Origin: Woeseiaceae bacterium
GTDB taxonomy: Bacteria; Pseudomonadota; Gammaproteobacteria; Steroidobacterales; Woeseiaceae
Length of the DNA stretch: 64,000 bases
NCBI GenBank assembly: GCA_024640345.1
Contig: JAHEFD010000001.1
Span: 18,288-82,287 of the forward strand
Direction of reading: 5' to 3'
Both the position numbers and the translations under genes were made by a program. Under the pieces are notes generated by a model. It did no database searches. It saw only the letters and a list, made by a program, of their open reading frames with translations, and was not told the origin of the DNA. Every line of letters starts with the position of its first letter. Positions within the stretch are counted from its first letter, which is position 1. Below are positions 26,389 through 62,953 of the stretch, piece after piece.

Positions 26389-27662
26389 TGAGTCACGTAT
26401 CAACGACAGGCACCCGCCGGGAAATTGGTCGGGCCAATTCGAAACCCGGGTTTCTCGACAACCTGTCTCGAAAGATGGTTCTTGCCCGATTGGATGGTTT
26501 GGAGATTGGGCGGCTGAAGATTACAGACGAAGGCGAGACCAGAACTTACGGTGTGGCTGGTGAGCTGACCGCAACCATTACCGTTTCGGATTCACGATTT
26601 TACAGTTCGCTGGCAACGGGTGGTGCACTGGGGGCGGCCGAGGCCTACATGCTTGGCTACTGGAACTGCGATGATTTGACTACCGTCGTGAGGATTCTCG
26701 TCCGGAACAGGCAGGTCCTTGAAAGCATAGAAAGCGGGTTGGCTCGCATTTCGGCGCCATTGGCAAAGTTCGCACACTGGTTCAATCGGAATTCCAGGAG
26801 AGGTAGTCGGCGCAATATCGCCGCCCATTACGACCTGGGTAACGATTTCTTCAAACTGTGGCTTGACGAGTCAATGATGTACTCGGCTGCCGTATTTGAG
26901 AAAGAGGGTATGACGCTGGAGGAGGCTTCGATCGCGAAGCTCGACAGGATTTGCAAGAAATTACAGTTATCTCCGGAGGATCATGTCCTGGAGATTGGTA
27001 CCGGATGGGGCGGCTTTGCCGTCTACGCTGCCGAGAATTATGGTTGCCGGGTAACGACGACGACCATTTCATCGGAGCAGTACGCCTATGCCAAAGAGAG
27101 AGTCAGGGCGGCAGGTCTTGAAGACAGAATCAGATTGCTACTCGAAGACTATCGTGATCTGGATGGCGCCTACGACAAGATAGTGTCTATTGAGATGGTA
27201 GAAGCGGTCGGCCAGGAGTTTCTCAATGACTACTTTGCACAGTGCAGCAAACTGCTCAAGTCAGATGGCATGATGCTCCTGCAGTCGATCACAATCGCCG
27301 ACCAGAGGTATCAGGCGGCACTCAGGTCCGTCGACTTCATCCAGCGATATATTTTTCCGGGCGGGTTCCTGCCGTCGGTGACGGCGATCACCGCCTCCCT
27401 GACTGCAGCGACTGACATGCGTGTCTATCATCTCGAAGACATAGGCGCCCACTACGCTGATACGCTCCGTCACTGGAGAGATCGTTTCTTTTCCAAATTC
27501 GACAAGATCTGGTCTATGGAGTACGGAGAAGAATTTCTGAGAATGTGGCAGTACTATTTTTGTTATTGCGAAGGCGCATTCATTGAGCGCGCCATCGGGA
27601 ACGTACAGGTATTGCTCGTGAAGCCGGACTGTCGGCGGAACCCGATCGTTCCGCCTCTTTAG
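26388..27662 (+). CDS. Cyclopropane-fatty-acyl-phospholipid-synthase family protein
   Basis: TAATG overlap start. SAM motif VLEIGTGWGGFAVYAA. C-terminal ...WQYYFCYCEGAF typical of the CFA synthase family. Confidence 0.85.
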   Translation: MSHVSTTGTRREIGRANSKPGFLDNLSRKMVLARLDGLEIGRLKITDEGETRTYGVAGELTATITVSDSRFYSSLATGGALGAAEAYMLGYWNCDDLTTVVRILVRNRQVLESIESGLARISAPLAKFAHWFNRNSRRGSRRNIAAHYDLGNDFFKLWLDESMMYSAAVFEKEGMTLEEASIAKLDRICKKLQLSPEDHVLEIGTGWGGFAVYAAENYGCRVTTTTISSEQYAYAKERVRAAGLEDRIRLLLEDYRDLDGAYDKIVSIEMVEAVGQEFLNDYFAQCSKLLKSDGMMLLQSITIADQRYQAALRSVDFIQRYIFPGGFLPSVTAITASLTAATDMRVYHLEDIGAHYADTLRHWRDRFFSKFDKIWSMEYGEEFLRMWQYYFCYCEGAFIERAIGNVQVLLVKPDCRRNPIVPPL

Positions 27663-27707
27663 CAGGCTCCAACCTGGCTGGCTAGCCAAAAAACGCCACG
27701 ATCGGCG

Positions 27708-28724
27708 TTACTTCCTGGCTGCCTCGTAACCGGCCTCCAGGTAAAGCTGGGCTGCTTCCATTGTGCAGGGTGCCTGGATGATTTCGCGATCGGCCAGTTT
27801 GCGCCAGTGGTGCGAGAACGTAACCGGTTCGGCAAGGTACACGGGATCCGTTACCGTAATTTCGGCCGCGAGATGCAGGCCACCATCCGACATCGTGAAT
27901 CTTTCCACCAGGTGCTTCTGCTCGCTTGAGCTGATGCCGGTGTGGATACCCCACTCATCTGCGATGAAATTGGTGGTCTCGACGACCAGCGTGTCACCCT
28001 CAAACCACCCGACAGAATGGCCCATCTTGGATGGTGCTCCGACTTCGTGATCGCGATCGAAGTGCACAACCCGAAGTTCTTCCATTAACTCGCGTTCCAT
28101 CACGAGCGTGTTGGCATCGGGCCTGGTAAAAACGACCGGGTAGGGAATGAGCATCGATTTCGGTGGGCCGGGATTACCGCAAGTCACCATCGGATTCTGG
28201 TCTTCGCTGAAGTTGTCGACCTGCGCCTGTCCAAGTTTTGACAAGGGCCAGCCAACCGGCGGCTTGTAGTGTGGCTTGAAACCGCCGGGATCGTCGCGCT
28301 TCCAAAGACCCGTGAAATCTGTAGAGGGCGTTATCTCTGCTGCGACATCCGTGGACGCACCAACGCGCGTGCCGTCGCCGGTTTCAGCCCATTGAAGGCC
28401 CGTGTAGTGTCGGTCCGAATCTTTATCGTGGGCGCCGTACCAGATAATTCTGTCGCCCGGTTTCCAGCTTGTCTTGCTCCAGCCCTTGGCAGCCATCGCC
28501 GGTGGATGTTCCATCTCGATCGTGTATTCGACTATCCGTCCCTTGTCGTCCGGCCCTTTAACCTTCAGGTAAACATGGGGCATGGTCCAGCCGTACTTGA
28601 CCACGACACCTTTGTAGGTGCGGACGTCGTCCATATTGAGCGAGGCATGAGAGTGATGAGCAAACCCGGCAACAGGAACAGCAAGCCAGGCGAACAGAGC
28701 GAGCAGATGTATACGCTTGATCAT
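27708..28724 (-). CDS. Secreted two-domain protein: N-terminal HHS (DUF6152-like) domain plus C-terminal WxGDTLVVET domain
   Basis: ATG at 28724. Signal peptide MIKRIHLLALFAWLAVPVAGFA is followed by HHSHAS, then WTMPH. The C-terminal half is similar to ORF 61773..62591. Confidence 0.7.
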   Translation of the reverse strand: MIKRIHLLALFAWLAVPVAGFAHHSHASLNMDDVRTYKGVVVKYGWTMPHVYLKVKGPDDKGRIVEYTIEMEHPPAMAAKGWSKTSWKPGDRIIWYGAHDKDSDRHYTGLQWAETGDGTRVGASTDVAAEITPSTDFTGLWKRDDPGGFKPHYKPPVGWPLSKLGQAQVDNFSEDQNPMVTCGNPGPPKSMLIPYPVVFTRPDANTLVMERELMEELRVVHFDRDHEVGAPSKMGHSVGWFEGDTLVVETTNFIADEWGIHTGISSSEQKHLVERFTMSDGGLHLAAEITVTDPVYLAEPVTFSHHWRKLADREIIQAPCTMEAAQLYLEAGYEAARK

Positions 28725-28728
28725 AGTC

Positions 28729-29952
28729 TTAGTTCCCCATACCAGGCAGTGCCCGATTATCCTCGGCGAGGCAATTCGCCTCCCTGACGTCGCCATGCAG
28801 CATGCGATCGCGGAACTTCGTGTGCCGCCATTCCCCGATCCAGTGCTCGGGGTCAGTCATGATGAAATCCATCTTCAACGTGTTGCCGTCATTGATCATC
28901 GAAATACGTTCAGTAATCTTGAGCTGGTTGCCCGTAAAGATGCCCTGCTGGATCAGGTGGTTCTCGTCTGTAAAACCCTCCGTTTCAACCACCAGTGTGT
29001 CGCCTTCCCAGTGGCCCAGTGACTCACCGTTCCAGTTGGGATCGCGCAGATTCGCCGGTTGACGCTCACGGCCATCGAGAAAAATCACGCGATACTCGTT
29101 GTTGAGCCTGGAGACCATGAAGATTGCTGTCGGGTACTGCAGCATCATCATGGATCCGAATCGTGTCATAAGTCTCGGCATGCCGGCCGGATAACAGAAA
29201 GCCGTTGGCTCGGCGTAGCGCTCTCCTTTGGTCGCATAACTGAGGTATTCGTCGTAGATCCGCTTTCCTTTCTCCGTGAATTCCGGGTGAGGTTTGAATT
29301 CGTAGCGACCATAATGCGGCTGCTCCGAGTCTTCACCCCGAAACGCCCAGGTGCCGGTAAGATCAAACGGTGGTTTTGGCCTGGGCTTGGCCAGGTTCTC
29401 GGCATCAAGGGCGCCGAGTACCGGATTCGCAGCCTTCGAGGGAATCGGCAGCTGCGGCGGCCGTGTTCGCGCTTCGCGCTTTTGCCATGTGTCACCAGCC
29501 GGTGGTGGAACATAGGGCGTCAGCGACGGGATTTGTTGCGGTACCTCTTCCGCTACGGTCGGGGTTTCCGCATATTCCATGCCGAACGTTTTGCCATTTG
29601 CGAGTGTCATTCCCTGCAATAGCCCGCCGGGTTTTCCCGACTTCAGTGGATTAATCAGAACCGTGATCTTGTCGCCTACGGACAGGGAATCGCGCGTAAA
29701 TCCATTCGTGACCATTTCTGTCGGGCTGCCACCCTCAATCAGCCACGGCTCCGACTTGCCATCTTTCTCGACGTCAATGGTGATGCTCAGGTGAGGGTTT
29801 CTCCAGACAAACTTCGCGACTGTACCGGATACAGTCGTCGTTTCGCTTCTGTCGAAAGCAACCGCAGAGTGGTGAGCCGGGGCGATCCGCGGCCAACTGA
29901 GGACCGACATCACGAGGATTGTTAGGAGCTTATTTTGGGCTGACAGGTGCAT
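28729..29952 (-). CDS. Secreted two-domain protein, paralog of 27708..28724
   Basis: ATG at 29952 (GTG alternative at 29982). Signal ...VLSWPRIAPA is followed by HHSAVAF, then WRNPH. C-terminal HWEGDTLVVETEGF. Confidence 0.7.
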   Translation of the reverse strand: MHLSAQNKLLTILVMSVLSWPRIAPAHHSAVAFDRSETTTVSGTVAKFVWRNPHLSITIDVEKDGKSEPWLIEGGSPTEMVTNGFTRDSLSVGDKITVLINPLKSGKPGGLLQGMTLANGKTFGMEYAETPTVAEEVPQQIPSLTPYVPPPAGDTWQKREARTRPPQLPIPSKAANPVLGALDAENLAKPRPKPPFDLTGTWAFRGEDSEQPHYGRYEFKPHPEFTEKGKRIYDEYLSYATKGERYAEPTAFCYPAGMPRLMTRFGSMMMLQYPTAIFMVSRLNNEYRVIFLDGRERQPANLRDPNWNGESLGHWEGDTLVVETEGFTDENHLIQQGIFTGNQLKITERISMINDGNTLKMDFIMTDPEHWIGEWRHTKFRDRMLHGDVREANCLAEDNRALPGMGN

Positions 29953-30163
29953 TTTCTCTTTCCCGCAAGGTTTTTGATACACGACAATGGATCGAGTATG
30001 TCACACAGATGCGCGACTTTCCGACGGTCCGTGCGTCGCTGTTGCACATTACAAAACACGCCGTTTTGACCGCATGCCCGGTATTTCGGTTCCTGCCCGT
30101 ATTGACGTGGATTGGCCAAAATAGGCTATCCTCGGCTCATCGATACCTAACCTGGTCATTTCA

Positions 30164-31393
30164 GTGAAAACCAATCGAAGACGTTTCCTTGCCGGATTAA
30201 GTGCGGTGGCACCGCTTGGCAGCATTATGTCGCAGAGCAGTATGGCAGCCGATGCGAGGGCAGCTGTAACACCCGACTATTTTGCCGACCTGGGGGTAAA
30301 GCCGTTTATCAATGCCATCGGCCCCTATTCATCGCTGGGCGGTAACGAAATGTGGCCGGAAGTCATCGAAGCGATGGATTACGCTATTCGAAACAAGGCA
30401 AAGATGACCGATCTTCATGATGCGGTCGGACTGCGTATCGCCGAACTGACCGGCGCGGATGCCGCTATGGTTTCCTCGGGCGCAACCGGCGCGATCATCC
30501 TGGGCACGGCAGCCTGTATGACAAAGGGCGACGAGGAAAAGATCGAACGCATTCCGGACACGTCGGGCATGCCCAACGAAGTGCTTATCCTGAAAAGTCA
30601 GCGTTACATGTACGACCGCTCGATAAAGGCACCCGGCGCGCTGCTCGTGGAAGTCGAAACTGAGGATGATATCCGCGATGCCATCAGCGACAAAACAGCA
30701 ATGATGTTCTACCTGCTGAATCGACCGGACGACCTCAAAATCGATGTCGACGATTACATCGCGCTGGGGAAGGAGTATGACATCCCGATCTTCTGCGATG
30801 CAGCGACCACGGTGCCGCCGGTCAGCGGCATCAGGTCGACCGTAGAAAAAGGTTTCGACCTCGTCTGCTATTCAGGCGGCAAAGGATTGCGAGGGCCATA
30901 CAGTGCGGGACTGTTACTCGGCAGGAAGGATCTTGTGCGATTCGCGCGCATGAATGGCTCACCGAATCATCGTGCCTATGGCAGGAGTATGAAAGTCGCA
31001 CCTGAGGAATACCTTGGCATGATGGTCGCTGTCGAAACGAGCCTGAAATTCGATGAAGAGGTCGAGTACGACCGCCAGTTGAAATCAGTCAATGCGATGG
31101 GCCGGGAACTCGTAAGACTACCCGGCGTTACCGTAGAGACCGCGGTGCCAAATGCTGAGGCACGTGAACCCTATATTGAAGTGCAATGGGATAAGCGTAT
31201 CTACGATGTCAGTGTTGCCGACCTGAAGCAGGCGCTGCGGGATGGTGAACCATCAATCGAGGTCAGGGCGCTGTTCCTGTCAAACAATCAACTGCACCTG
31301 ACAGCTGTTGCCTTAAAGAGTGGCGAGGCCGAAATCGTAACCAGGCGGGTCACGGAAATACTGAATTCCCGCCGTACCGGGGTGGAGGCGTAA
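30164..31393 (+). CDS. Tat-signal SelA-like (fold-type I) PLP-dependent enzyme
   Basis: GTG start. Twin-arginine motif NRRRFLAGLSAVAPLG...AADA. PLP-lysine region CYSGGKGLRGPYSAGLLLG resembles SGDKLLGGPQAG of the SelA/DgaE family. Confidence 0.7.
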   Translation: MKTNRRRFLAGLSAVAPLGSIMSQSSMAADARAAVTPDYFADLGVKPFINAIGPYSSLGGNEMWPEVIEAMDYAIRNKAKMTDLHDAVGLRIAELTGADAAMVSSGATGAIILGTAACMTKGDEEKIERIPDTSGMPNEVLILKSQRYMYDRSIKAPGALLVEVETEDDIRDAISDKTAMMFYLLNRPDDLKIDVDDYIALGKEYDIPIFCDAATTVPPVSGIRSTVEKGFDLVCYSGGKGLRGPYSAGLLLGRKDLVRFARMNGSPNHRAYGRSMKVAPEEYLGMMVAVETSLKFDEEVEYDRQLKSVNAMGRELVRLPGVTVETAVPNAEAREPYIEVQWDKRIYDVSVADLKQALRDGEPSIEVRALFLSNNQLHLTAVALKSGEAEIVTRRVTEILNSRRTGVEA

Positions 31394-32599
31394 ATGGCCA
31401 GGAGACGCACGGTTTTAAAATCCATTGCCGGGGCATTCTCGTTGCCCATGCTGGGTACAGCCGGTGCTGCGGCGACAATGAAGCCGGCGGCACGTGACTA
31501 TTTTCGTGAGCTTGGACTGACGCGCTTCATCAACGCGGCCGGCGCCTATTCTGCCTACGGAGGCGCAAGAATGCGCCCCGAAGTGGTCGAGGCCATGCGC
31601 TACGCCGCAAACAACAAAGTGAAGATGAAAGAGCTCCATGATGCAGTCGGTGAGCGCATTGCCGAACTTGTCGGGGCAGACGCGGCCATGGTGACGTCCG
31701 GAGCAACGGCATCGATCGTGCTCGGAACCGCGGCATGCATGACACTTGGAGACGAAGACCAGATGCGGCAGTTGCCTGACACGACGGGCATGAAGAATGA
31801 AATTATCATTCAGAAGAAGCACAGGTACACCTATGACCGGTCGCTGACGGTTGCCGGAGCGAAGCTTGTCGAAGTCGAGAATGAAAGCGATGTTCGTCGA
31901 AAGGTTTCTGACAGGACGGCGATGATGTTTTTCCTTCAACCGACGCAGGATGGCGATAACATTCCTGCGGCCAGTTACATCGAGCTCGCGCAGGAACTCG
32001 GCGTGCCTTCGTTTTGCGATGCTGCAACAACGACTCCGCCGGCCCGGAATGTCGTTGATGGTGTTAGCACCGGGTTCGACCTGATCTGTTATTCGGGCGG
32101 CAAGGGATTGCGCGGTCCGTACAGTGCCGGTTTGCTCCTTGGCAGGAAAGACCTGATCGGGTACGCACGTCGTCACTCCGCGCCGAACGATATATCGATC
32201 GGTCGTGGCATGAAGGTGTCCGCAGAGGAGTATCTCGGCATGCTTGTCGCCCTGGAGGCGGGACTGCGTGTTTCCGAGGCTGATGATTTTGCTTACAAGA
32301 ACGAACGCTTCCGCAGGATCATCGCAGAACTGGATGACGTGCCAGGAGTCCGCACGAAAGTGTTTGTATCAGAGGGGCACGCGAAGGAGCTCTATCTCGA
32401 TATCGATTGGGATACCGACATCATCGCCATGAGTCCACAGGATCTCGTCGAGGAATTACGTAACCACGATCCCTCTGTCGAAGTTCGGCTTTTTATTTTC
32501 TCCGGTGGCAGGATTCAGCTTTCAGCGACGGTCATGGATGAAGGCGAGGATGAACTCGTCGGACAGATTATTCGCGGGATATTGTTGTCGCATGCCTGA
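31394..32599 (+). CDS. Tat-signal SelA-like PLP-dependent enzyme, tandem paralog
   Basis: ATG directly after the upstream TAA. MARRRTVLKSIAG... twin-Arg motif. Same CYSGGKGLRGPYSAGLLLGRKDL motif and collinear similarity to 30164..31393. Confidence 0.7.
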   Translation: MARRRTVLKSIAGAFSLPMLGTAGAAATMKPAARDYFRELGLTRFINAAGAYSAYGGARMRPEVVEAMRYAANNKVKMKELHDAVGERIAELVGADAAMVTSGATASIVLGTAACMTLGDEDQMRQLPDTTGMKNEIIIQKKHRYTYDRSLTVAGAKLVEVENESDVRRKVSDRTAMMFFLQPTQDGDNIPAASYIELAQELGVPSFCDAATTTPPARNVVDGVSTGFDLICYSGGKGLRGPYSAGLLLGRKDLIGYARRHSAPNDISIGRGMKVSAEEYLGMLVALEAGLRVSEADDFAYKNERFRRIIAELDDVPGVRTKVFVSEGHAKELYLDIDWDTDIIAMSPQDLVEELRNHDPSVEVRLFIFSGGRIQLSATVMDEGEDELVGQIIRGILLSHA

Positions 32600-33680
32600 A
32601 GTGGAAGGCAAGGCAGCAACAAACGGCGACAGGATGCTGGCAGAGATCGTACTGCCGGGACGACCGCTAAAGGAGACGCTGGCGTTCTTTACGGAAGAAC
32701 TCGGCTTCCGGGTTGATTCAATCTATCCCGCAGACTCGCCCCGGGTGGCCGTGGTCTCAGCGCACGGCGTTCGTCTTCGCCTCGACACCGATGCCCAAAC
32801 CGACCCCGGCGTAGTCCGAATGGCTCGTGGCGATATGGTTGGCGGGGAGTATGTGGTTGCCCCGAATGGTACGAAAATAGACTTTTTTCCGGCAGAGCAA
32901 CCGCTCACGATACCGATTCCCCGCCCGTCCCTCGCTATTCTGAATCCGGGCGCTGGTGCCGGCTTCGGAGAGGGCCGCGCCGGGATGCAGTACCGCGACC
33001 TTATTCACGATCGTTTCGGCGGCAGTTTCATTGCATCGCACATACGTATAAAGGACGGTGGGCCGGTCGCCGATTATGTGCACCATCATCACATCCGTTT
33101 CCAGATGATATTCTGCGTGCGCGGCTGGGTGAGCGTGGTGTACGAAGACCAGGGACCACCGATCCTGCTTGAAGCGGGTGATTGCTTCCTCCAGCCGCCA
33201 CACATTCGACATCGCGTACTGGAGTCGTCAGACAACATGGAGGTTGTCGAGATTGCCTGCCCGGCTGAACATGAAACCTGCGTCGATCATGAAATGGAAC
33301 TGCCGACAGGCTCGGTGAATCCTGATCGCGATTTCGGTGGGCAGAAATTTGTATTTCACGATGCGAGTGAATCACCCTGGCTCTCATGGCACGTCCCCGG
33401 ATTCGAATACCAGGACACGGGTATCGATGAGGCGACAAACGGTATCGCTTCCGCAATTGTCATCAGGGCGAGCGGTGAGATAGCAACGTTACCGTTAGGT
33501 CATGATGCGGAGCTTCGATTTCTGTTTGTCCTTCAGGGCAAAGCGTCTTTCGTGCATAAGAAGCATGTTGACGCTCTCGGGCAGAACAGCTCATGTGCGA
33601 TCCCTGGCGATCTTGCCTGCGAGCTCACCGACATCTCGGCGGACTTCAGAATGCTTGAAGTATTTGTTTCCAGCCGATAA
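32592..33680 (+). CDS. Cupin-domain protein (VOC-like N-terminus plus two cupin-like modules)
   Basis: ATG at 32592 overlaps the upstream gene by 8 nt. HHHHIRFQMIFCVRGW...PPHIRHRV cupin-like His pattern. No signal peptide. Confidence 0.6.
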   Translation: MPEVEGKAATNGDRMLAEIVLPGRPLKETLAFFTEELGFRVDSIYPADSPRVAVVSAHGVRLRLDTDAQTDPGVVRMARGDMVGGEYVVAPNGTKIDFFPAEQPLTIPIPRPSLAILNPGAGAGFGEGRAGMQYRDLIHDRFGGSFIASHIRIKDGGPVADYVHHHHIRFQMIFCVRGWVSVVYEDQGPPILLEAGDCFLQPPHIRHRVLESSDNMEVVEIACPAEHETCVDHEMELPTGSVNPDRDFGGQKFVFHDASESPWLSWHVPGFEYQDTGIDEATNGIASAIVIRASGEIATLPLGHDAELRFLFVLQGKASFVHKKHVDALGQNSSCAIPGDLACELTDISADFRMLEVFVSSR

Positions 33681-35040
33681 CCAGGTCTATCAATACAATG
33701 ATAAGGGCCGTCGGTGCGAGATAGCGGTTCGTGATGCGCCAGTACGTCTTCCACCCGGCCGTGTCACCGCTGAATTCCTCGTCGATGACAATCTTGCGCA
33801 CAACCCAGCCCGCGAACAGTGCGATCAGGAGCGCATTGACCGGTGCCAGAACGTTGGCCACCGTGAAGTCGGCAATTCCAAAAAAGTTCTTGTCAACTCC
33901 GATGAAGGCGAGGGGTCGAAAATCTGCCAGGAAGCTGAATGAGAATACCGAGCCAAGCCCGAATACCCAGACAGCAGCGCCTGCGACCATCGCCATCTGC
34001 CGGCGTTTGCCGGGCCTTCGCTCTTCGAGCCAGGCGACAACCGGTTCGAGCATGCCAAGCGCCGACGTGTAGGCGGCGAACAGCAGCAAGATGAAGAAAA
34101 GGGTGCCAATGATATGCCCGCCGGGCATATTGCCGAAGGCAATCGGCAGCGTGACAAAAATCAGTCCGGGCCCTTCCGCGGGATCGAGCCCGCTCGCAAA
34201 TACGATCGGAAAGATGGCGAAGCCCGCGAGTATTGCGGCCAGCGTATCGCCGATGCAGACCACGGTTACCGATGTTCGAAGCGAGTAATCCCTTGGCATG
34301 TAGGACGCATAGGTAATCATCAGTCCGACGCCGATACCCAGCGAGAAAAGCGCCTGGCCCAATGCGACCAGGAAGGATTCGCCGGTGAGGGCGCTGAAAT
34401 CCGTGCTGAACAGGAATCTCGCGGCGGCGCCGAAGTCTGCACTGATCAGCCCATAAATGACGATCACGATAATCACGCCGAACAGTGCCGGCATCAGGAT
34501 CTTTGAAGCCTGCTCGATTCCCTTGTTGATTCCACGCGCAACAACCCACACGGTTGCCGCGACAAACAAGCCATGCAGCATCGCCTGGTAGGCTGGCCGG
34601 TCTATGCGGGTACCGAATGTACTCTGCGAGCTTGCCGCATCAAAGCCGCTGAACCCATTGCTTGCAGCGAGTCCCAGGTAGTCTATTGCCCAGGCAGCGA
34701 CTACGGCGTAATAACTGAGACCAATGAACGGTACGAGAAGGCTAAGCCATCCGATCGAGCGCCAGAACCCGTTGGCGTTCTCAGAACGAACGAGCGCAGC
34801 AATCGCGTTGACAGGACTGCGGTGTCCGCGGCGGCCGAGCATCATTTCACCGGCCATCAGCGGTACGCCGAGCAAAAATACAAATCCCAGGTAGATGATC
34901 ACGAAACCACCGCCGCCGTATTCGCCGGCGATATAAGGAAAACGCCAGAGATTTCCCAGCCCGACAGCGCCTCCGATGGCTGCTAACAGGAATGCCGGGC
35001 GACTCGACCAGGAATTGGTAGTTTCGTTCGCTATTGCCAT
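33646..35040 (-). CDS. Sodium-dependent transporter, NSS/SNF family
   Basis: GLGNLWRFPYIAGEYGGG signature, about 12 TM segments. Confidence 0.9.
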   Translation of the reverse strand: MAIANETTNSWSSRPAFLLAAIGGAVGLGNLWRFPYIAGEYGGGGFVIIYLGFVFLLGVPLMAGEMMLGRRGHRSPVNAIAALVRSENANGFWRSIGWLSLLVPFIGLSYYAVVAAWAIDYLGLAASNGFSGFDAASSQSTFGTRIDRPAYQAMLHGLFVAATVWVVARGINKGIEQASKILMPALFGVIIVIVIYGLISADFGAAARFLFSTDFSALTGESFLVALGQALFSLGIGVGLMITYASYMPRDYSLRTSVTVVCIGDTLAAILAGFAIFPIVFASGLDPAEGPGLIFVTLPIAFGNMPGGHIIGTLFFILLLFAAYTSALGMLEPVVAWLEERRPGKRRQMAMVAGAAVWVFGLGSVFSFSFLADFRPLAFIGVDKNFFGIADFTVANVLAPVNALLIALFAGWVVRKIVIDEEFSGDTAGWKTYWRITNRYLAPTALIIVLIDLVIGWKQILQAF

Positions 35041-35231
35041 CGGTCACTCCTCTGCTGCTGTATCGAATTTCAGTTTCGTCGTGACCGCACGGGTCGCAAA
35101 TGCCGGTACGCCAGGCGAATCCATGGCGATACCTTTCGTCAGGTTCATATAGTCTGGTCTTGCTCCGGACAAGTGTAGCCCCAGCAGATAGAATTAGTCA
35201 CTCTCTTAAAGTCGTGCCGTATGAGGAAGCA

Positions 35232-36833
35232 ATGAAAAGCAGGATAGTTACGCCAGGCATCGTGGTGCTTCTTATGCAGCTTACCGCCTGTGCGCCTCCA
35301 GCGGGCGAAACAGCTTCCGTGACGGTCGATACGCTTATTACCGGCGGCCTTGTCTACGATGGTTCGGGAGAATCACCTGGTTTGCTCGATATTGGTATCA
35401 GCGAAGGAAGGATTTCGTTCATCGGCGACGCAGTGGCGGCGGACATATCGTCGCCGGACGTTATCGATGCGAAGGGACTTTGGGTAACGCCGGGGTTCAT
35501 CGATGCACACAGTCATGCCGAGCTGGATGAGGACTACGGCAAGGATGCCCTGCCGTATCTCTACCAGGGAATCACGACCGTTGTGCTCGGCCTGGATGGT
35601 GATGGCACGAGTGACATTGGTGATCGACTGGCGTCCTGGGAAAAGAACGGCATTGGCGTAAATGGAATCGCCTTCGTCGGCCACGGCTTCATGCGCAGCG
35701 CGGTGATTGGTAGAGAAGATCGTGACGCTACGCCCGATGAACTTGAAGAAATGCGCGGGCACGTCAGGAAGGCGATGGAAGAGGGTGCGTTCGGGCTATC
35801 AACGGGTCTCTTTTATGTACCCGGGACCTATGCATCAACCGACGAAGTCATTGCACTGGCACAGGAAGCTGCCAAATTTTCAAATGCGATCTACGACACC
35901 CATGACAGGGACCTTGGAGCGGTCTACGAGGGAGTCGGCTACGACGCCTCGGTCGAGGAAGGGATCAGGATAACCGAGGAGTCCGGACTGCGCGGAATTT
36001 TCAGCCACTACAATCTCCAGGGTGCGCACAACTACGGGCGTGCCGATGTCGGTGCACGACTCCTGAATGATGCCCGCGATCGCGGAGTGGATATCTGGGC
36101 GGCACAACATCCGTATACTGCGACTCAAAGCAATCTGCGTTCTTACACAATTCCGGATTGGGCCTCAGCAGGCAGCCGCGAGGAAATGATCGCTCGATTC
36201 GACAATCCGGAAACGGCTGCGGAAATCATCGCTGCGACCAATGCAATGCTCGAGATACGTGGTGGAGCCGACAAGATTCTGTTCGCAGATCCTCGCCCGG
36301 ATCTGAACGGAAAGACGCTGGCGGATGTTGCAGCCGAGAGAGAGCTTTCGCCGGCCGAAACTGCGCAATGGATTCTTCGCGACAGCAACGCCGTCGTAAT
36401 GAACCTCGAGCTCTACGATCATAACAATACGCGGCTCCTGGCAAAGGAACCGTGGATGATGACCTGCACCGATGGCCGTACCCCGCGGCCAGATCAACCG
36501 ATAACACACCCTCGAACGTTTGGTGCATTTCCGAAAAAGATGCGTCATTTCGTTTTCGAAGAAAAGCTCCTGGCGCCTGAATTCGTGATTCGAAGTTTTT
36601 CCGGACTCGCTGCCGATTTTTACCGGCTTCCGGATCGTGGCTATCTTCGCGAAGGCTATGCGGCCGATATCGTGGTGCTGGACCCGGAAACGTACCGGGA
36701 CAAAGCGACGTTCGGAGAGCCGCAACAATATGCCACCGGCATCGAACAGTTATTCGTCAACGGGCAATCAGCTATCCGCGACGGAAAGTCGACAGGCGCG
36801 CTGGCCGGCGTGCCGATCAGGAGGCCGCGGTAA
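35232..36833 (+). CDS. N-acyl-D-amino-acid deacylase (D-aminoacylase) family amidohydrolase, lipoprotein-like
   Basis: ATG after AGGAAG. LMQLTACAPP. GGLVYDGSG...IDAKGLWVTPGFIDAHSHAE pattern. Confidence 0.75.
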   Translation: MKSRIVTPGIVVLLMQLTACAPPAGETASVTVDTLITGGLVYDGSGESPGLLDIGISEGRISFIGDAVAADISSPDVIDAKGLWVTPGFIDAHSHAELDEDYGKDALPYLYQGITTVVLGLDGDGTSDIGDRLASWEKNGIGVNGIAFVGHGFMRSAVIGREDRDATPDELEEMRGHVRKAMEEGAFGLSTGLFYVPGTYASTDEVIALAQEAAKFSNAIYDTHDRDLGAVYEGVGYDASVEEGIRITEESGLRGIFSHYNLQGAHNYGRADVGARLLNDARDRGVDIWAAQHPYTATQSNLRSYTIPDWASAGSREEMIARFDNPETAAEIIAATNAMLEIRGGADKILFADPRPDLNGKTLADVAAERELSPAETAQWILRDSNAVVMNLELYDHNNTRLLAKEPWMMTCTDGRTPRPDQPITHPRTFGAFPKKMRHFVFEEKLLAPEFVIRSFSGLAADFYRLPDRGYLREGYAADIVVLDPETYRDKATFGEPQQYATGIEQLFVNGQSAIRDGKSTGALAGVPIRRPR

Positions 36834-36847: not shown

Positions 36848-37930
36848 TCAGTCAGTTCTTAGTACTTCGCTCTGTTGCTGCAGCAGCTGCGCGGGCGCTA
36901 TGACATGGTGCTCGAGAAGATCATAGAGATTTCGGATATGCGCTCGACGCCCGTCGCCCGGCAGGCTGCTGGATGTCGTTACAACCACGAGTGACAGCTC
37001 CGGCACAAGCAGGATGAACTGGCCGCCATAGCCCCACGCGAAACTTGTACGCAAGCCGGCCATCTCGCGTACCCACCAGCCGTAACCATAGAAACGGCCC
37101 TTTTCGCGAGCCGACTCGGCCAGCGGCTGAAGCGACGTTTGTATCCAGGATTCCGGGATGATCTGTCGTCCGTTGACCTGGCCGTTGTTGATATAGAGTT
37201 CGCCAAACGCAAGCATCTGGCGTGGCGTCAATTCCATGTTGTTGCCGCCGAAGTAGACACCCTTCGGGTCCTGCGGCCACGCAGCCAGGTGAAATCCCAT
37301 CGGGCGACCAAGAACCTCGCGGGCAAATGTCAGCGTGGACTTGCCCGTCGCCTCGGTCAGAATTGCCGACAGCAGGTGTGTGTTGCCGGTGCTGTATTGC
37401 AGTTTCGTTCCAGGCGTCGATAGAAGAGGCTGCTCGAGTGCGTAGCCGATCCAGTCGTTACTTAAGACCCATGCGCCGTAATTATAAAAGCTCGTCGTTT
37501 CCAGTCCCGCCTGCATCGATAGCAGGTTACCGATCGTGATGTTGTTTTTCCGGGTATCAGTACGGGTTGGCAATAACTCGCCGTAAAAATCGGAAATGGG
37601 CTGGTCAAGTCCGGCCACATAGCCTTTGTCGATCGCAATTCCCACGAGGGCTGACATGATCGACTTCGAAACTGACTTTACGTTGGTAGTTCGGTCTGCG
37701 GTGGAGCCGTTGAAATATTTTTCGACAGTCAGCTCGCCCTTGTAGCTAATGAGCAAGCTCCGCAAGCGAGGCATTTGCTCCGCGGTTCGCAGCGCTTCGG
37801 TGAATAACTGATCGTCAATCGATACGCGGTCGTCAGCAGAAGTGTTTTCCGCTGCCAGCGTAGCCGCAAGTAAAAACCATATCACGCTGAAAGTGCGTGA
37901 ACGACTTGCCGTCGAGAGGGGGTTTTTCAT
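36848..37930 (-). CDS. Beta-lactamase-fold serine hydrolase (class C / D-aminopeptidase-like), secreted
   Basis: Signal peptide. SxxK motif VKSVSKS and downstream YSTGN. Confidence 0.8.
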   Translation of the reverse strand: MKNPLSTASRSRTFSVIWFLLAATLAAENTSADDRVSIDDQLFTEALRTAEQMPRLRSLLISYKGELTVEKYFNGSTADRTTNVKSVSKSIMSALVGIAIDKGYVAGLDQPISDFYGELLPTRTDTRKNNITIGNLLSMQAGLETTSFYNYGAWVLSNDWIGYALEQPLLSTPGTKLQYSTGNTHLLSAILTEATGKSTLTFAREVLGRPMGFHLAAWPQDPKGVYFGGNNMELTPRQMLAFGELYINNGQVNGRQIIPESWIQTSLQPLAESAREKGRFYGYGWWVREMAGLRTSFAWGYGGQFILLVPELSLVVVTTSSSLPGDGRRAHIRNLYDLLEHHVIAPAQLLQQQSEVLRTD

Positions 37931-38582: not shown

Positions 38583-39167
38583 CTATCTGAGGATTTCGAC
38601 CTTTTTCACCGTCATATGCCTGCCGCCGTCGCTGCCGTCTATGAAGATCACCTCTTCGTCATTTCCGGCGGAAATAAGAACCGAGCGAATACTCTCCTTG
38701 ACCGAATCATCCAGCGGCTTGCCCGAGATGATGGTTACGCCATCGGCATGGTGGGGCGCGCCCATTATCCGGACGTCAATATCCACAGGGTCTCCGGGTG
38801 CCAGGGGTTCGCCAGGCTCCATGGGATCACCGGGCGCACCGTGGAATGCCATATGAGGACCGTGTGGGCCCATGACGGGCATCGTGATCGTTTTGCCGTC
38901 GACATTGAAGCTGAACCCGTCTTCCTCGCGAGTGACAGTGACGGTCTTTCCGGACTCATTGTCGAGCGTTCGTGACTCGCCGACCGCCAGGTCTTCCATA
39001 TCGAAGCCAGTGTCGTCGCTGACCCAGTGCACCGAGGTGGCATCATCTCCACCATCGCCCGAGGTCATGATCCTGATTTCCACTTTTTTCTCGACAGCTA
39101 CGTCTTGTGCGGCGGCGGCGCCGAAGGTCATTAGTGCGGCCAGGGCCACCAGTTTAAGATTGTTCAT
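38583..39167 (-). CDS. Secreted hypothetical protein with Met/His/Pro-rich centre
   Basis: ATG at 39167. Signal MNNLKLVALAALMTFGAAAA. Central MPVMGPHGPHMAFHGAPGDPMEPGEPLAPGDP...GAPHHADG. Confidence 0.55.
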   Translation of the reverse strand: MNNLKLVALAALMTFGAAAAQDVAVEKKVEIRIMTSGDGGDDATSVHWVSDDTGFDMEDLAVGESRTLDNESGKTVTVTREEDGFSFNVDGKTITMPVMGPHGPHMAFHGAPGDPMEPGEPLAPGDPVDIDVRIMGAPHHADGVTIISGKPLDDSVKESIRSVLISAGNDEEVIFIDGSDGGRHMTVKKVEILR

Positions 39168-39246
39168 GAAAGCGCTTCCCCAAAATCGTGCCAATTGTTC
39201 CTGTAATGATGCGGCACAGCCTGAATTCGTCGCGACGAAATCTGCC

Positions 39247-40812
39247 TTATGGATTGCACGACGGGTGTTGGCGATCAATCACTTCGCCGGATAACGTACC
39301 GGTCAGTTTTCCGTCAGAAATCGCCGGCATACCGTTAACGATGAGGTAGGAAACGCCTGTTGCGAGCCTTGTCGGATTTTCGAAATCGGCGACCGGCTGG
39401 TACGTATCCAGGTCGATAATGGCAATGTCAGCCTTGCGACCCTCGGCCAGGTAGCCGCGGTCGCAAAGGTAAAAAGAATCTGCAACCAGGCCCGAGCTGC
39501 GATGGACGAATTTTTCCATCGACATGAGTGTGCTCTCGGCAACGAAGTCCCGATAGGCTTTCGGATAAGAGGCATACTTTCGCGGATGCCCCGTTGAGCC
39601 GTCCGAGCCGGTCATTACCCAGTCCTGGATCGCAATGGCATTAATGTCGGGCGGATCCATGTTGAACGAGGCAATAGAGGGGTCGCCTGCCCGAACGACC
39701 TCGACTGCTGCATCGACCGGCTCCATGTCCAGGTGTTCGGCAATTTCTCCGAGCGTCATGCCGCGCCACTCGCTTTCCCCCGTGACCAGCAAGGAGTCTT
39801 TTCCGCCCCGGCGAAAAAGATTGTCTTCCATTTCCTTCTGAATCTGGTCTTTGAGGTCAGGATTGTCCAGGCGCCCGAACATCGCTTCCTCGGAATCGGC
39901 CCTGACCCATCCGGGTATAAGCGCGCTGGCGAACCGCGTGCCCGAGGCCTGCCAGGGATACTGGTCTGCCGTGACCTCGACGCCCCTTTCCCGCGCCATT
40001 TCGACTAACGCGATGATGTCACCGCTTTGTCCCCAGACGTCGCGGCCAAGGGCTTTCAGATGCGCGGCGTGCACGGGAATTTCCGCTTCTTCGCCGATCT
40101 GTATGAGTTCCTTGATGGAGCCCAGTACCCCAATGTTGTAGGAGCTTTCGTCGCGCAGGTGAGAGTCATAGACGCCGCCGAACCGGGCGGCGACTTTCGC
40201 CAGCGCAACGACCTCTGCGGTGCTGGCAAAACTGCCCGGTGTATAAAAAAGTCCTGTCGACAAACCGAGCGCCCCGGCCCGCATTTCGTCCTCGACAAGT
40301 GCCTGCATCTGGCGCATTTCCTCATCGGACGGAGCCCGATTTTCCTCTCCCATCACTGATCTACGAACCTGGTTGTGGCCCGCGAAAAAACCGGCATTGG
40401 TTCCGATTCCCTGCTCGTACATTTTCCGGACATTGGCCGGGCGATCAGGAATTCCATCCCCGTCATTGCCGATAAATACGGTGGTAACACCCTGCGCCAG
40501 GTAGTTGGCATTCTCGTTATGGTCGGGGTCCAGCAGATCCTCGCGAGCGTGTGTATGCGGGTCGATAAACCCGGGCACGACGACGAGACCACGGGCCTGG
40601 ATAACCAGGTCGGCTTGCGCGTCCTCGGCAGCATTCATCGATACGATGCGGTCCCCCGTAACGCCGATATTGACCTGGCGCGCGGGAGATCCGGAGCCGT
40701 CGTACACCGTGCCGTTGACGATCAGAATATCAAATCGAGTTTCCTCATCAGCGGCTCCGCAGGCGGCGAGAAAGGAAGCCGCCAAAAACATGGGTACCAT
40801 TGTCCGGATCAT
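39247..40812 (-). CDS. N-acyl-D-amino-acid deacylase family amidohydrolase, lipoprotein-like
   Basis: FLAACGA. NGTVYDGSG...VVPGFIDPHTHA. Paralog of 35232..36833. Confidence 0.75.
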   Translation of the reverse strand: MIRTMVPMFLAASFLAACGAADEETRFDILIVNGTVYDGSGSPARQVNIGVTGDRIVSMNAAEDAQADLVIQARGLVVVPGFIDPHTHAREDLLDPDHNENANYLAQGVTTVFIGNDGDGIPDRPANVRKMYEQGIGTNAGFFAGHNQVRRSVMGEENRAPSDEEMRQMQALVEDEMRAGALGLSTGLFYTPGSFASTAEVVALAKVAARFGGVYDSHLRDESSYNIGVLGSIKELIQIGEEAEIPVHAAHLKALGRDVWGQSGDIIALVEMARERGVEVTADQYPWQASGTRFASALIPGWVRADSEEAMFGRLDNPDLKDQIQKEMEDNLFRRGGKDSLLVTGESEWRGMTLGEIAEHLDMEPVDAAVEVVRAGDPSIASFNMDPPDINAIAIQDWVMTGSDGSTGHPRKYASYPKAYRDFVAESTLMSMEKFVHRSSGLVADSFYLCDRGYLAEGRKADIAIIDLDTYQPVADFENPTRLATGVSYLIVNGMPAISDGKLTGTLSGEVIDRQHPSCNP

Positions 40813-42389: not shown

Positions 42390-44111
42390 TTACAGTGCGG
42401 ACATCTCGCCGTAGACCGGTTCGCCGCCAAATAAAGTCAGGAGAACCTTCGTTTCTGAAATATCTTCCGGTTCCATCTCGAAGAGATTCTTGTCAATCAC
42501 GATAAGGTCCGCCAGCTTGCCGGTTTCGATCGATCCCGTTTCATCTTCGTGTTTGTTGACAAAAGCCGCGTTTATCGTAAAGGCGACGATTGCCGTTTCG
42601 AGGTCAATTCGCTCCTCGGGAATGAATACCGGGTAAGAATCGTCAATGGCACTTTTGCGCGTAATTGCCGTTTCCATCTGTGGGAACGGATTCGCGGTTG
42701 ATACCGACCAGTCGCTGCCAAAGGCAATGGTTGCACCTGTGTCCTGCACCGTCTTGATAGGGTACATCCAGCGAGCACGTTCCTCGCCGATGAAAGGGAT
42801 GGTCAGTTCCGTGACGTATTCGTCTGCATAGGCCCAGAGTGGCTGAAAATTGGCAACGACACCGAGTTCCGCAAAGCGAGGAATATCGGCGGGGTCCCAC
42901 ATCTGGATATGGGATATGTGGTGGCGGTTTCCGAGTTGGCCATTCTGGATCAGGGCTTCCTCAATTGCATCGAGTGCGTACCTGATCGCCGCATCGCCGA
43001 TGGAATGAAAGTGCACCTGGAAACCCGCCTTGTCGAGAATCGGAACCACCTGTTTCAGCACTTCCGGGGCAACCATCGGTATGCCGCGCGAACCGCTCGG
43101 TATCAGGTAGGGCTCGAGCATCGCGGCCGTGTAGTTCTCCATCACGCCGTCTTCCATGATCTTGACTGTGGTTGGCCGCAGGAGTCCGCCCTTGTTGAAT
43201 TCCTCTCTCAGCAAGAGAATGTCTTCGATTTGTTCCGGCCCGCGCTCCCGATCCCACCAGATCGATCCGACAACGCGTAAAGTGAGCTGCCCGGAGCGCT
43301 CCAGAGCGGCATAGGTTTCGAGCGCATCGCGATCAACAATCGCGTCCTGGATGGACGTGATGCCATAGCTGTGCAGCAAATTCTGAGCATAGATAAGGCC
43401 TTGCTGGCGAGTTTCCGCCGTGTCGCCTGGAACGAACTTGCTGACGAGACGGGCAGCTCCTTCCTGCAGGCTGCCTATGGGTTCACCGGTCTCCGGGTCA
43501 CGATCAATTCGCCCGTCGACCGGGTCCGGCGTGTCCTTGTTGATTCCGGCTATTTCAAGGGCGCGACTGTTTGCCCAGGCCGTGTGACCGTCCTGCGAGG
43601 TGAGGAATACCGGTCGATCCGGCACCAGTTCGTCAATTATCGTGCGGCTCGGCGCGCCCCCGGGTCCAAAGACGGACATGGACCACCCGCCGCCGGTGAT
43701 CCACTCGAGGTCAGGATTTGCCGCCGCATATTCACCGATGGTGGAACGATAGGCTGCGAGGTTATTGAGCCCGTTCAAATCGCAGGCTGATGCCTCGATG
43801 CCTGCGCCAATCGGGTGAATGTGACTGTCCTGGAATGCGGGCAGCATCATTCGGCCTTTCAGGTCGACGACGGTGGTGTTTGTGCCGACATAGCCGGCGG
43901 CACCGGTGCCGGAGCCAACAAATACGATCCGGCCGTCGGTCACTGCGACTGCTTCCGCCCAGGACCTGTCCGGATCAACTGTATAAACGCGACCGTTGGT
44001 GAATACCAGGTCGGCACCCGTCGTTTCCGCAGGGGTGTCGGTCTGGCCACAGGCACTGATTCCTACCGCTATCAGGGCCGCGAGAATCGGGGCGTTCAGT
44101 TGCTTGATCAT
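42390..44111 (-). CDS. Amidohydrolase-3-type metallohydrolase, lipoprotein-like
   Basis: GISACGQ. TNGRVYTVD...LPAFQDSHIHP. Paralog of 12659..14434. Confidence 0.75.
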   Translation of the reverse strand: MIKQLNAPILAALIAVGISACGQTDTPAETTGADLVFTNGRVYTVDPDRSWAEAVAVTDGRIVFVGSGTGAAGYVGTNTTVVDLKGRMMLPAFQDSHIHPIGAGIEASACDLNGLNNLAAYRSTIGEYAAANPDLEWITGGGWSMSVFGPGGAPSRTIIDELVPDRPVFLTSQDGHTAWANSRALEIAGINKDTPDPVDGRIDRDPETGEPIGSLQEGAARLVSKFVPGDTAETRQQGLIYAQNLLHSYGITSIQDAIVDRDALETYAALERSGQLTLRVVGSIWWDRERGPEQIEDILLLREEFNKGGLLRPTTVKIMEDGVMENYTAAMLEPYLIPSGSRGIPMVAPEVLKQVVPILDKAGFQVHFHSIGDAAIRYALDAIEEALIQNGQLGNRHHISHIQMWDPADIPRFAELGVVANFQPLWAYADEYVTELTIPFIGEERARWMYPIKTVQDTGATIAFGSDWSVSTANPFPQMETAITRKSAIDDSYPVFIPEERIDLETAIVAFTINAAFVNKHEDETGSIETGKLADLIVIDKNLFEMEPEDISETKVLLTLFGGEPVYGEMSAL

Positions 44112-44245
44112 ATTGTGAAATTCCGCTTACGGTTTTTGAAGTGACATTCGATTATGACCCGCCGCACCCTGCGGCAAAAGCGTTATTACCACATCCTGAG
44201 ATTGGCTCATCGAAACCGGCGACTGTGTTTTTCAAGGAACCCGGA

Positions 44246-60457: not shown

Positions 60458-60487
60458 CGCGGCGCCTGGAGCCGCCGCGTCGTTTTT
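60458..60487. terminator. GC-rich hairpin immediately after the FAH-family stop codon (orientation ambiguous)
   Basis: CGCGGCG-N8-CGCCGCG then TCGTTTTT on the plus strand. On the minus (gene) strand there is no U-tract. Confidence 0.3.
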
Positions 60488-61622
60488 ACAGCGGGTCGCG
60501 ATAGGTGTCGACCGGTGGCAACTCCGCGCCCGACAGCCCGGCAGGTTTTTCTTCGCCAACGACCGGCAGTTTCAGCGTACCAATGCCCTCAATCGTCGCG
60601 GTGACCTCTTCGCCGGGCTGCAGGAACCTTTGTGCTCCTCGAACGGCCGTTCCCATTCCGGTGCCGCCGGATGTTCCGTTGTTGATGACGTCGCCGGGAT
60701 ATAGCGTGATGATCGAGGAGCCGTATTCGATCAGCTCCCACAATGAATGAATCATGTCGCCGGCAGTTGCTTCCTGCATCTGTTCATCGCCCACACTCAG
60801 TGACTGGCGCAGGATCTCCATGGGATTGCCATAGAACTCCTTGGGAACGATCCACGGTCCTTGTGGCGCAAACGTGTCATGACCCTTGCCAACAAACCAG
60901 TCGCTGGTGAAGCGAGCACCGCCGGGTGGTCGCCCGCCGCGATCGGAAATGTCCATCGTCACCATGTAGCCAAAGACATAGTCCTGGGCATCGTTGGCTG
61001 AAACGTATTTCGCGGTCTTTCCGATAACTGTACCCAACTCTACTTCCCAGTCGGTTCGGTTCCTGCCATAAGGAATAACGATCGGTGTCCGGTTACCGAC
61101 AACGGCCCCCCGGCTGGGTTTCAGGAACAGGTAGGGTACGCCGCGCTCTTCCCGTCGCAGGCGTGCGGCTTCACGACGTTCTTCTGGTGTACCTGACTCG
61201 TCGACGTGGCTGTAGAAATTGACGGCCGCATTCAGAATCTTGCCGGGATACATGATCGGTGGAAGCGTGCTGACGTCGTCAACATCGTGGATATACGCCG
61301 GCCTGGCAGCGCCGAGCATATTATTGGCGACGAGGTCATTGACGATTTCGTAGAGGCGGCGTTTAACGCCGTAGTCGTAACGTTCGATCAGCCCGATCAT
61401 GTCATCCGGGACAGGGAGGGCGGGGTAACCTGCATTTCTTTCGAGCGCTGCATTGGCCGCGTCGAGTTCAACGACCAGCTTGTCGCGGAGAACGATACCA
61501 ACCCATGGAGATCCGCCGGTATCGAATGTGCCGACTTTGAACGGTTCTGCAATTTCCTGCGCCGAACCGAACACTGGAATGAGCAGAAAAAGCGAAACAA
61601 CAGCAACAGAAACAGCGCGCAT
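60486..61622 (-). CDS. Fumarylacetoacetate hydrolase (FAH)-family protein with N-terminal signal peptide
   Basis: MRAVSVAVVSLFLLIPVFGSAQE. C-terminal FAH core ...YPGDVINNGTSGGTG...TATIEGIGTLKLPV. Confidence 0.75.
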   Translation of the reverse strand: MRAVSVAVVSLFLLIPVFGSAQEIAEPFKVGTFDTGGSPWVGIVLRDKLVVELDAANAALERNAGYPALPVPDDMIGLIERYDYGVKRRLYEIVNDLVANNMLGAARPAYIHDVDDVSTLPPIMYPGKILNAAVNFYSHVDESGTPEERREAARLRREERGVPYLFLKPSRGAVVGNRTPIVIPYGRNRTDWEVELGTVIGKTAKYVSANDAQDYVFGYMVTMDISDRGGRPPGGARFTSDWFVGKGHDTFAPQGPWIVPKEFYGNPMEILRQSLSVGDEQMQEATAGDMIHSLWELIEYGSSIITLYPGDVINNGTSGGTGMGTAVRGAQRFLQPGEEVTATIEGIGTLKLPVVGEEKPAGLSGAELPPVDTYRDPL

Positions 61623-62952: not shown

Positions 62953-62953
62953 C

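Follow-up and report, generated by a model that had tools for sequence, protein, structure and literature searches.

A six-gene locus of a Woeseiaceae bacterium with Tat-signal DgaE/SelA-like enzymes, DUF6152 proteins, a bicupin and a sodium symporter: separable modules of a possible scavenging locus

A compact block of six genes lies between positions 27708 and 35040 of a 64,000-nucleotide stretch (the window) of contig JAHEFD010000001.1 from a Woeseiaceae bacterium (assembly GCA_024640345.1). On the minus strand, the genes of DUF6152_A (27708-28724, 338 amino acids) and DUF6152_B (28729-29952, 407 amino acids) are found 4 nt apart, both being recognized in the list of open reading frames (ORFs), in an independent gene call and by Pfam. 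Divergent from these, on the plus strand, are the genes of two pyridoxal phosphate (PLP) enzymes of the DgaE/SelA-like type with a predicted twin-arginine translocation (Tat) signal: SelA-like 1 (type 1; 30164-31393, 409 amino acids, with an RRRFL motif, the PLP lysine Lys240 and Arg254) and SelA-like 2 (type 2; 31394-32599, 401 amino acids, with an RRTVL motif, Lys237 and Arg251). The two abut directly, and SelA-like 2 overlaps by 8 nt the gene of a bicupin (32592-33680, plus strand, 362 amino acids), which is predicted to be cytoplasmic and has an N-terminal VOC-like half-domain. The bicupin gene is convergent with, and overlaps by 35 nt, the gene of a Na+ symporter of the neurotransmitter:sodium symporter (NSS) family (33646-35040, minus strand, 464 amino acids), the nearest known relative of which is MhsT. 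Among the public and metagenome contigs compared in this study (L001-L171), L001 and L002 are identical to the window, and an independent gene call on them gives the same six genes as the ORF list, so that the genes, spacings and overlaps described in a first-pass annotation of this DNA are reproduced. That annotation put the divergent intergenic region at 181 nt; the region exists, and with the favoured ATG start of DUF6152_B at 29952 it measures 211 nt (29953-30163). This start is preferred to the GTG at 29982 on account of the choice of the gene caller and of a signal peptide as long as in the homologues. Four of the six products carry recognizable export signals, two of the Sec type and two of the Tat type, as had been proposed; a periplasmic location is predicted for these four, no signal peptide is found in the cupin, and the symporter is predicted to be an inner-membrane protein. 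Base composition is uniform along the whole window, giving no hint of recent foreign insertion. There are no names or accessions on record for the window proteins.

The divergent control region (29953..30163) contains three boxes, AGTATGTCACACAG at 29995-30008, GCTGTTGCACAT at 30038-30049 and GCTATCCTCGG at 30125-30135, all of which are kept in alignments with L003, L004 and L088, the last of which is without the PLP pair. In these alignments AGTATGnCA, CTGTTGCACA and GCTATCCTC are conserved irrespective of whether SelA1 or the cupin lies downstream; in L088 the cupin gene directly follows the boxes. Thus the idea of a shared divergent region finds agreement in the motifs of relatives, and the boxes may be the operator for some regulator. 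A TGT..CACA core is common to two of the three boxes. No consensus sigma-70 site was found in the divergent region, where region-wide counts equal the shuffle level. A sigma-54 site at the conserved TTGCA box was considered and rejected on inspection by eye, the -24 element not being conserved. An Rfam E-value scan of 27400-35400 for riboswitches or other known RNAs was empty. Just beyond the DUF6152_A stop codon, a consensus scan marks a terminator-like hairpin with a T-run (27692..27709, minus strand), a weak call in that the scan gave 12 sites where 7.1 were expected.

The block consists of three separable modules, the cupin/NSS pair, the PLP tandem and the DUF6152 pair, which are gained or lost independently at one site, the convergent cupin and NSS genes being the conserved core. 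The full block is also found in L003, L004, L084-86 and L168, that is, on at least four other distinct contigs, with a left flank that is either a cfa/DUF1365/amine-oxidase cluster (window, L004, L168) or MOSC/HTS (L003, L084). The cupin/NSS pair stands alone in L162 (cfa, cupin, NSS), is joined by the DUF6152 pair without the PLP enzymes in L088 (cfa, A, B, cupin, NSS), and by the PLP pair without DUF6152 in L092 (MOSC, type 1, type 2, cupin, NSS). On a second backbone, L098, DUF6152 A and B lie on the strand of the cupin together with cupin/NSS, and the sister locus L103 is without the pair. In this clade the specific partner of the DUF6152 pair, where it has one, is cupin/NSS and not the PLP enzymes (L088, L098). 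The adjacency of SelA2 and cupin recurs in L029, L089, L090, L092 and L095. The neighbourhood expected from the first-pass annotation is thus conserved in several relatives with different flanks, although it is not obligate, as its modules come and go separately.

This pattern can be read in two ways. We tentatively favour, at a little below even confidence, a flexible scavenging locus with a cupin/NSS core, to which two optional periplasmic modules are joined at a common site with a single divergent control region, because the full block recurs with different left flanks, because the combination of DUF6152, cupin and NSS is repeated on a second backbone in the other orientation (L098 compared with L103), and because SelA2-cupin adjacency is found in further loci and the intergenic boxes are conserved (L088). 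As the main alternative, the three modules might be functionally unrelated neighbours by descent, at a site upstream of the cupin that tolerates insertions and deletions, which we regard as quite possible. In its favour, one backbone shows all four presence/absence combinations (L162, L088, L092 and the window), and the modules have other partners elsewhere, namely a thiamine pyrophosphate (TPP)-dependent enzyme, cytochrome c or Nramp for DUF6152 and different contexts for the PLP pair, while the full block is restricted to close relatives. Mere descent accounts less easily for the DUF6152 pair joined to cupin/NSS in the other orientation on a backbone unrelated to the first (L098), for a VOC-domain protein that flanks NSS in L004, L009, L084, L088 and L168 and the PLP pair alone in L010, or for the 8-nt SelA2/cupin overlap and the conserved control region. 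Several observations weigh against the scavenging locus. Five loci (L005-L008, L010) have the PLP pair but neither of the other modules, and the DUF6152 pair likewise stands by itself, behind TPP enzymes in L083 and L169-171 and with no such neighbour in L087; 43 of the 56 cupin relatives with enough downstream sequence are without NSS. The genomes with the full block are all close relatives (SelA1 at least 75% identical) in which wider synteny is common, so that common descent explains much of the conservation. The block lacks a regulator gene, RidA and an obvious substrate-defining gene, and the fold search with DUF6152_B gave nothing at E <= 1e-3. What stands of the single compact pathway of the first-pass annotation is that the modules associate repeatedly, once on an independent backbone; the association is facultative, and much of it is explained by descent. 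That no known pathway could be named agrees with our result, since none of the families has a characterized member close enough.

SelA-like 1 and SelA-like 2 are 50% identical to each other. The top NCBIfam matches of both are the DgaE-family models TIGR01437 and NF047797, with scores of 140.6/141.0 bits where the cut-off is 600 and of 156.0/169.2 bits where it is 385.3, and the SelA model TIGR00474 gives 28.8 and 25.4 bits (cut-off 267.9) in an alignment limited to about 70-105 residues around the PLP site. The nearest solved structure by sequence is PDB 8T7J (E 4e-39 and 1e-34), followed by the D-amino-acid ammonia-lyase DGL (7LC0), which aligns over the full length with both enzymes (E 1e-31 and 4e-29). 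In DGL, Arg-226 binds the alpha-carboxylate and Arg-301, Arg-332 and Arg-346 bind the 6-phosphate, the pair His-162/His-163 is strictly conserved in all DGL sequences, and an H163A mutant lets the enamine go (PMC9529869). The PLP lysine, aligned with the YSGAK lysine of 7LC0, and the counterpart of Arg-226 are retained as K240/R254 (type 1) and K237/R251 (type 2), the lysine being Lys-217 in the DGL paper and at chain position 213 in the aligned 7LC0, and both residues are invariant in the alignment of close relatives. On the other hand, at the positions of His-162/163 the type 1 enzyme has R187-P188 and the type 2 enzyme T-Q, and only Arg-332 of the phosphate arginines is kept (R368 in type 1, R365 in type 2), Arg-301/Arg-346 being replaced by Y337/V382 in type 1 and by Y334/T379 in type 2. 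That these proteins are DgaE or SelA proper, as their closest NCBIfam matches and the label 'L-seryl-tRNA(Ser) selenium transferase' of homologues in several sources might suggest, is very improbable in view of the scores of 141-169 bits where 385 and 600 are required (25-29 against 268 for SelA), the replaced histidine pair, the loss of two of the three phosphate arginines and the conserved twin-arginine signal. By the same comparison, they are relatives of DgaE that cannot be DgaE themselves, and a non-phosphorylated substrate fits a periplasmic location.

The N-termini of the two enzymes, NRRRFLAGL...SMA|AD for type 1 and RRRTVLKSI...GAAA|T for type 2, have the arginines R5/R6 invariant in close relatives, and of the 86 full-length relatives, which cover every phylum sampled, 80 have a twin-arginine motif, the remainder being mis-called starts or signal-less paralogues. 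There is weak similarity to a TAT-target model (E 0.003). Both enzymes are thus predicted to be exported by Tat. In L003-L010, including one alphaproteobacterium, scoring of the type of each gene gives a fixed order of type 1 followed by type 2. This order, and the PLP lysine and carboxylate arginine kept in both copies, suggest an old duplication kept as a hetero-oligomer. A natural SelA1-SelA2 fusion, P0002 (710 amino acids), in which type 1 reads through into type 2, was set aside as most likely a gene-call artefact, because the second half retains its own Met and Tat signal and there is a frameshift at the end.

The PLP-enzyme family is large. Among 8000 candidates scored, 3015 clusters belong to it at E <= 1e-10, and at least 572 genome loci are found in Woeseiaceae, other Gammaproteobacteria, Kordiimonadaceae, Longimicrobiales, Acidobacteriota, Bacteroidota and Planctomycetota, so that by sequence similarity the family amounts to thousands of proteins in at least five phyla. 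In phyla other than Proteobacteria, there is mostly a single gene for it. Of 70 loci, 29 have an ORF of the RidA family, checked with Pfam, within 4 kb of the PLP gene, and of the 36 RidA ORFs of this kind, 30 have a twin-arginine motif of their own; among the proteobacterial loci, RidA is nearby in 0 of 10. RidA clears the enamine and imine products of PLP eliminases. Taken with the release of the enamine by DGL H163A, the RidA neighbours make periplasmic alpha,beta-elimination the best inference for the family, and the loss of His-163, which frees the enamine in DGL, would account for the need of RidA. The analogy suggests an ammonia-lyase acting on a sugar-derived or D-configured amino acid.

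In Bacteroidota, the PLP gene is found in an operon (L040 4348-13232; L045 5365-11203) in the order of LacI, RraA-like aldolase, amidohydrolase, a GSDH-type pyrroloquinoline quinone (PQQ) sugar dehydrogenase-cytochrome c fusion, Tat-RidA, one or two Tat-SelA-like genes and CBM9-like, with SusC/SusD adjoining. This operon has the look of a complete route by which an amino sugar would be oxidized in the periplasm. Downstream of the PLP pair in a Woeseia contig (L007 7402-9726) are FAA-hydrolase-like and homogentisate-dioxygenase-like ORFs, and upstream of it lie a Cys/Met-type PLP enzyme and an amino-acid permease-like ORF, the downstream ORFs and the permease being judged by N-terminal sequence and the Cys/Met-type enzyme by clustering with Pfam-annotated homologues; these surroundings may hint at an aromatic amino-acid context. 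No genes for RidA, GSDH, RraA, CBM9, the TPP enzyme, Nramp or cytochrome c were found in the window.

The two DUF6152 proteins match PF19649 with 58.1 and 92.6 bits (gathering threshold 27) over the N-terminal ~95 residues only. DUF6152_A has a Sec signal and the DUF6152 domain in its N-terminal part, and its C-terminal domain, ~200 amino acids long, is without annotation; DUF6152_B has the same architecture plus a proline-rich linker of ~100 amino acids, and the two are 23% identical across both domains. In both, the Sec-type signal ends with A-x-A right before H-H-S, from which the mature N-terminus is predicted to be histidine. H27, H28, S29, P53-H54, E73, C253 and C394 are invariant in 48 sequences of both paralogues. 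The AlphaFold2 (AF2) model of DUF6152_B has a pLDDT of 75, with the N-terminal residues below 50, and in the fold search its N-terminal domain resembles OB folds and its C-terminal domain FABP/CRABP calycin barrels at E ~2-3e-3; its sequence has zero matches in PDB. The model gives a hint of an OB-like domain joined to a calycin-like barrel, and the fold is so predicted. For the C-terminal domain, 6649 representative relatives were found (E <= 1e-3), mainly stand-alone proteins of 230-290 amino acids, and there is no Pfam family for the domain or for these relatives. At a second locus of the window, on the plus strand, a 272-amino-acid homologue of the C-terminal domain (61773-62591) is followed by a 124-amino-acid stand-alone DUF6152 protein with AMAHHS (62578-62952). 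Such adjacent split genes are also present in L083, L169 and L170, and that the split domains stay adjacent argues that both act together. The split locus of the window has as neighbours, both on the minus strand, the gene of a PQQ dehydrogenase bearing a cytochrome c domain and one of the FAA-hydrolase family (58238-60298 and 60486-61622).

Elsewhere, DUF6152 orthologues (60-64% identity) keep the order B then A behind a TPP-dependent enzyme. In L083 and L170, a TPP enzyme with a Tat signal is followed by cytochrome c and then by the B-A pair. The TPP enzyme has ~650 amino acids with a twin-arginine signal, GLTRREFLG... (L083 5611-7566 and L170 5610-7571); to our knowledge, export of a TPP enzyme would in itself be unusual. 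L169 and L171 have a cytoplasmic TPP enzyme, upstream of which lie major facilitator superfamily (MFS) and Nramp genes, and FixI/FixS/FixG and DsbD_2 are close by; in L087, the DUF6152 pair has no TPP-type neighbours. The pair is hence an autonomous unit with several partners. The 'metal/redox' role assigned to these HHS proteins in the first-pass annotation could not be upheld, its basis being the invariant histidines and the neighbours in other genomes only.

Such neighbours bear on a further possibility, that a secreted metabolite or metallophore is tailored or matured in the periplasm by the locus, after the pattern of PvdN and PtaA, with the PLP enzymes modifying an amino-acid moiety and the His-rich DUF6152 proteins handling the metal. 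The characterized Tat-exported PLP enzymes are tailoring enzymes only (PMC6206403), and DUF6152 pairs elsewhere are near Nramp, HupE/UreJ, a FixI-type P-type ATPase and DsbD_2. Nevertheless, we consider this improbable: no nonribosomal peptide synthetase or polyketide synthase genes and no exporters are found in the block or in its syntenic counterparts in relatives, an uptake symporter and hydrolases as partners match catabolism better, and distant relatives of the PLP enzymes are in utilization loci of the SusC/D-LacI type.

The cupin scores 35.2 bits with Cupin_2 (cut-off 27.2), and its AF2 model (pLDDT 92) is a bicupin with an N-terminal VOC-like half-domain. In the fold search, quercetin 2,3-dioxygenase, YlbA, oxalate decarboxylase and salicylate dioxygenase rank best (Foldseek E 3e-13, TM-score 0.5-0.56, 12-15% identity). 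A motif H164-x-H166-x4-Q171 ... H207 is invariant among relatives, for which reason a catalytic metal site is likely. The family has more than 5000 relatives, all without names. The symporter scores 156 bits with PF00209 (SNF; cut-off 27) and 101.3 bits with NF037979 (cut-off 50), and is a full-length homologue of MhsT (PDB 4US3, E 1e-79) and less closely of LeuT (E 1e-36). In a cupin-anchored metagenome scan, cupin and NSS are convergent in 13 of the 56 cupin loci with enough downstream sequence and in 19 of 80 loci overall. No support was found for uptake of the PLP enzymes' product by the symporter, as suggested in the first-pass annotation.

If the locus is a scavenging locus, the following course is the one that we favour. 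Type 1 and type 2 PLP enzymes, probably as a hetero-oligomer, would receive their PLP in the cytoplasm, leave it through Tat in the folded state, and catalyse in the periplasm a DgaE-type alpha,beta-elimination, as an ammonia-lyase, of a non-phosphorylated compound, probably a D-configured or beta-hydroxy amino acid or an amino-aldonate, leading to a 2-oxo acid and ammonia. Such chemistry is suggested by DGL being the nearest characterized relative and by RidA beside distant relatives. The DUF6152 pair, exposing His-His at its mature N-terminus, would act as periplasmic binding proteins for a metal or a small ligand. The MhsT-like symporter would import an amino-acid-like compound, and the cytoplasmic bicupin, as a 3-His(+Gln) metalloenzyme, would convert it; a flux from the periplasmic modules to symporter and cupin may be supposed. 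A wider proposal is that the PLP genes form a large unrecognized class of Tat-exported periplasmic DgaE-like ammonia-lyases in Proteobacteria, Acidobacteriota, Bacteroidota, Gemmatimonadota and Planctomycetota that would deaminate sugar-derived or D-configured amino acids outside the cytoplasm, coupled in most phyla to an exported RidA and here an obligate heteromer without RidA, wired with the His-His OB/calycin pair to symporter and bicupin as one scavenging pathway. Taken as a whole, we think this proposal rather unlikely. Thousands of Tat-exported DgaE-like enzymes, often beside an exported RidA and a PQQ sugar dehydrogenase, would point to a widespread extracytoplasmic deamination route, by which bacteria of sediment and soil could use amino-sugar acids or D-amino acids; this touches on how nitrogen from peptidoglycan and chitin is turned over. 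Three further orphan families also gain a context that can be tested: DUF6152, the C-terminal domain that accompanies it and has no model (over 6600 representative clusters), and the bicupin family (more than 5000 members). If the modules are merely unrelated neighbours, the finding shrinks to four separate uncharacterized families.

Next to the block, though not part of its core, are an amidohydrolase (Amidohydro_3) with a lipoprotein-like signal (LTAC) at 35232..36833 on the plus strand and, on the minus strand, an exported beta-lactamase-fold serine hydrolase at 36848..37930, syntenic in L009 and L168. They are followed on the minus strand by an exported protein without known domain (38583-39278) and a second amidohydrolase paralogue (39247-40812), both syntenic in L003, L009, L084, L088 and L168. 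An exported protein of ~400 amino acids with a C-terminal VOC/glyoxalase domain lies next to NSS in L004 (9713-10528), L009 (4612-5871), L084 (1786-2994), L088 and L168 (2664-3878), and adjoins the PLP pair alone in L010 (1589-2467), which is from Kordiimonadaceae, an alphaproteobacterium; in the window this protein is absent and the amidohydrolase at 35232..36833 is in its slot. The window is unusually rich in exported amidohydrolases, with five Amidohydro_1/3 genes (12659-14434, 35232-36833, 39247-40812, 42390-44111, 62882-64000), besides the serine hydrolase (36848-37930) and a DAO-family FAD oxidoreductase (44141-45565). Such a set of genes would be suited to breaking down D-amino-acid or N-acyl-amino-acid compounds. 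Two adjacent paralogous ORFs of ~880-900 amino acids with near-identical N-termini (46630-49269 and 49642-52332, both on the minus strand) look like outer-membrane receptor genes.

Compared with known systems, the window PLP enzymes share with DGL/DgaE the fold-type I SelA-like family, the YSG-x-K lysine, Arg-226 and likely alpha,beta-elimination; they differ in lacking the His-162/163 proton-donor loop, Arg-301 and Arg-346, in having Tat signals, and in being a fixed tandem of two paralogues, not one gene, with neither genes of a phosphotransferase system (PTS) nor a DgaF-type aldolase nearby. Their closest solved relative by sequence, 8T7J, is an uncharacterized 'putative selenocysteine synthase'; a literature search of incomplete coverage found no publication on 8T7J or DUF6152. 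Within the same incomplete coverage, which makes for weak evidence, no description was found of a Tat-exported DgaE-like family, its coupling to RidA or its paired form. As far as we know, few cases of periplasmic PLP chemistry have been described (PvdN, PtaA and some racemases); in PvdN, a mutant of the lysine equivalent to the PLP lysine is retained in the membrane. The pyoverdine-tailoring enzymes PvdN and PtaA of Pseudomonas are loaded with PLP in the cytoplasm, exported folded by Tat and act in the periplasm (PMC6206403). Tat export of a PLP-loaded enzyme is thus a principle common to both cases and not a new one, although PvdN and PtaA belong to other PLP subfamilies, act on a siderophore side chain, and have neither a paralogue tandem nor a link to RidA, cupin or NSS. 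For the DUF6152 proteins, the CusF-type periplasmic OB-fold metal binders are alike in being small exported beta-barrel domains with invariant histidines, and the histidine-brace copper proteins are alike in that the predicted first mature residue of DUF6152 is histidine. Histidine-brace proteins of the LPMO, CopC and PmoB type have an N-terminal His and a second His on an Ig/cupredoxin-like fold. In contrast to this fold of LPMO and CopC, that predicted for DUF6152 is OB-like and fused to a calycin-like domain, and DUF6152_B has no sequence match or significant fold match to CusF or the histidine-brace proteins. The window cupin has in common with the quercetin 2,3-dioxygenase YxaG, the ureidoglycine aminohydrolase YlbA and oxalate decarboxylase the two-cupin architecture and the H-x-H ... 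H motif; it is distinguished by Gln in place of the Glu ligand, an extra VOC-like half-domain and a second barrel without conserved metal motif. The symporter belongs to the same family of Na+-coupled amino-acid symporters as MhsT of Bacillus halodurans, an NSS protein for hydrophobic amino acids, and differs from it in that its gene sits in a convergent pair with a bicupin gene.

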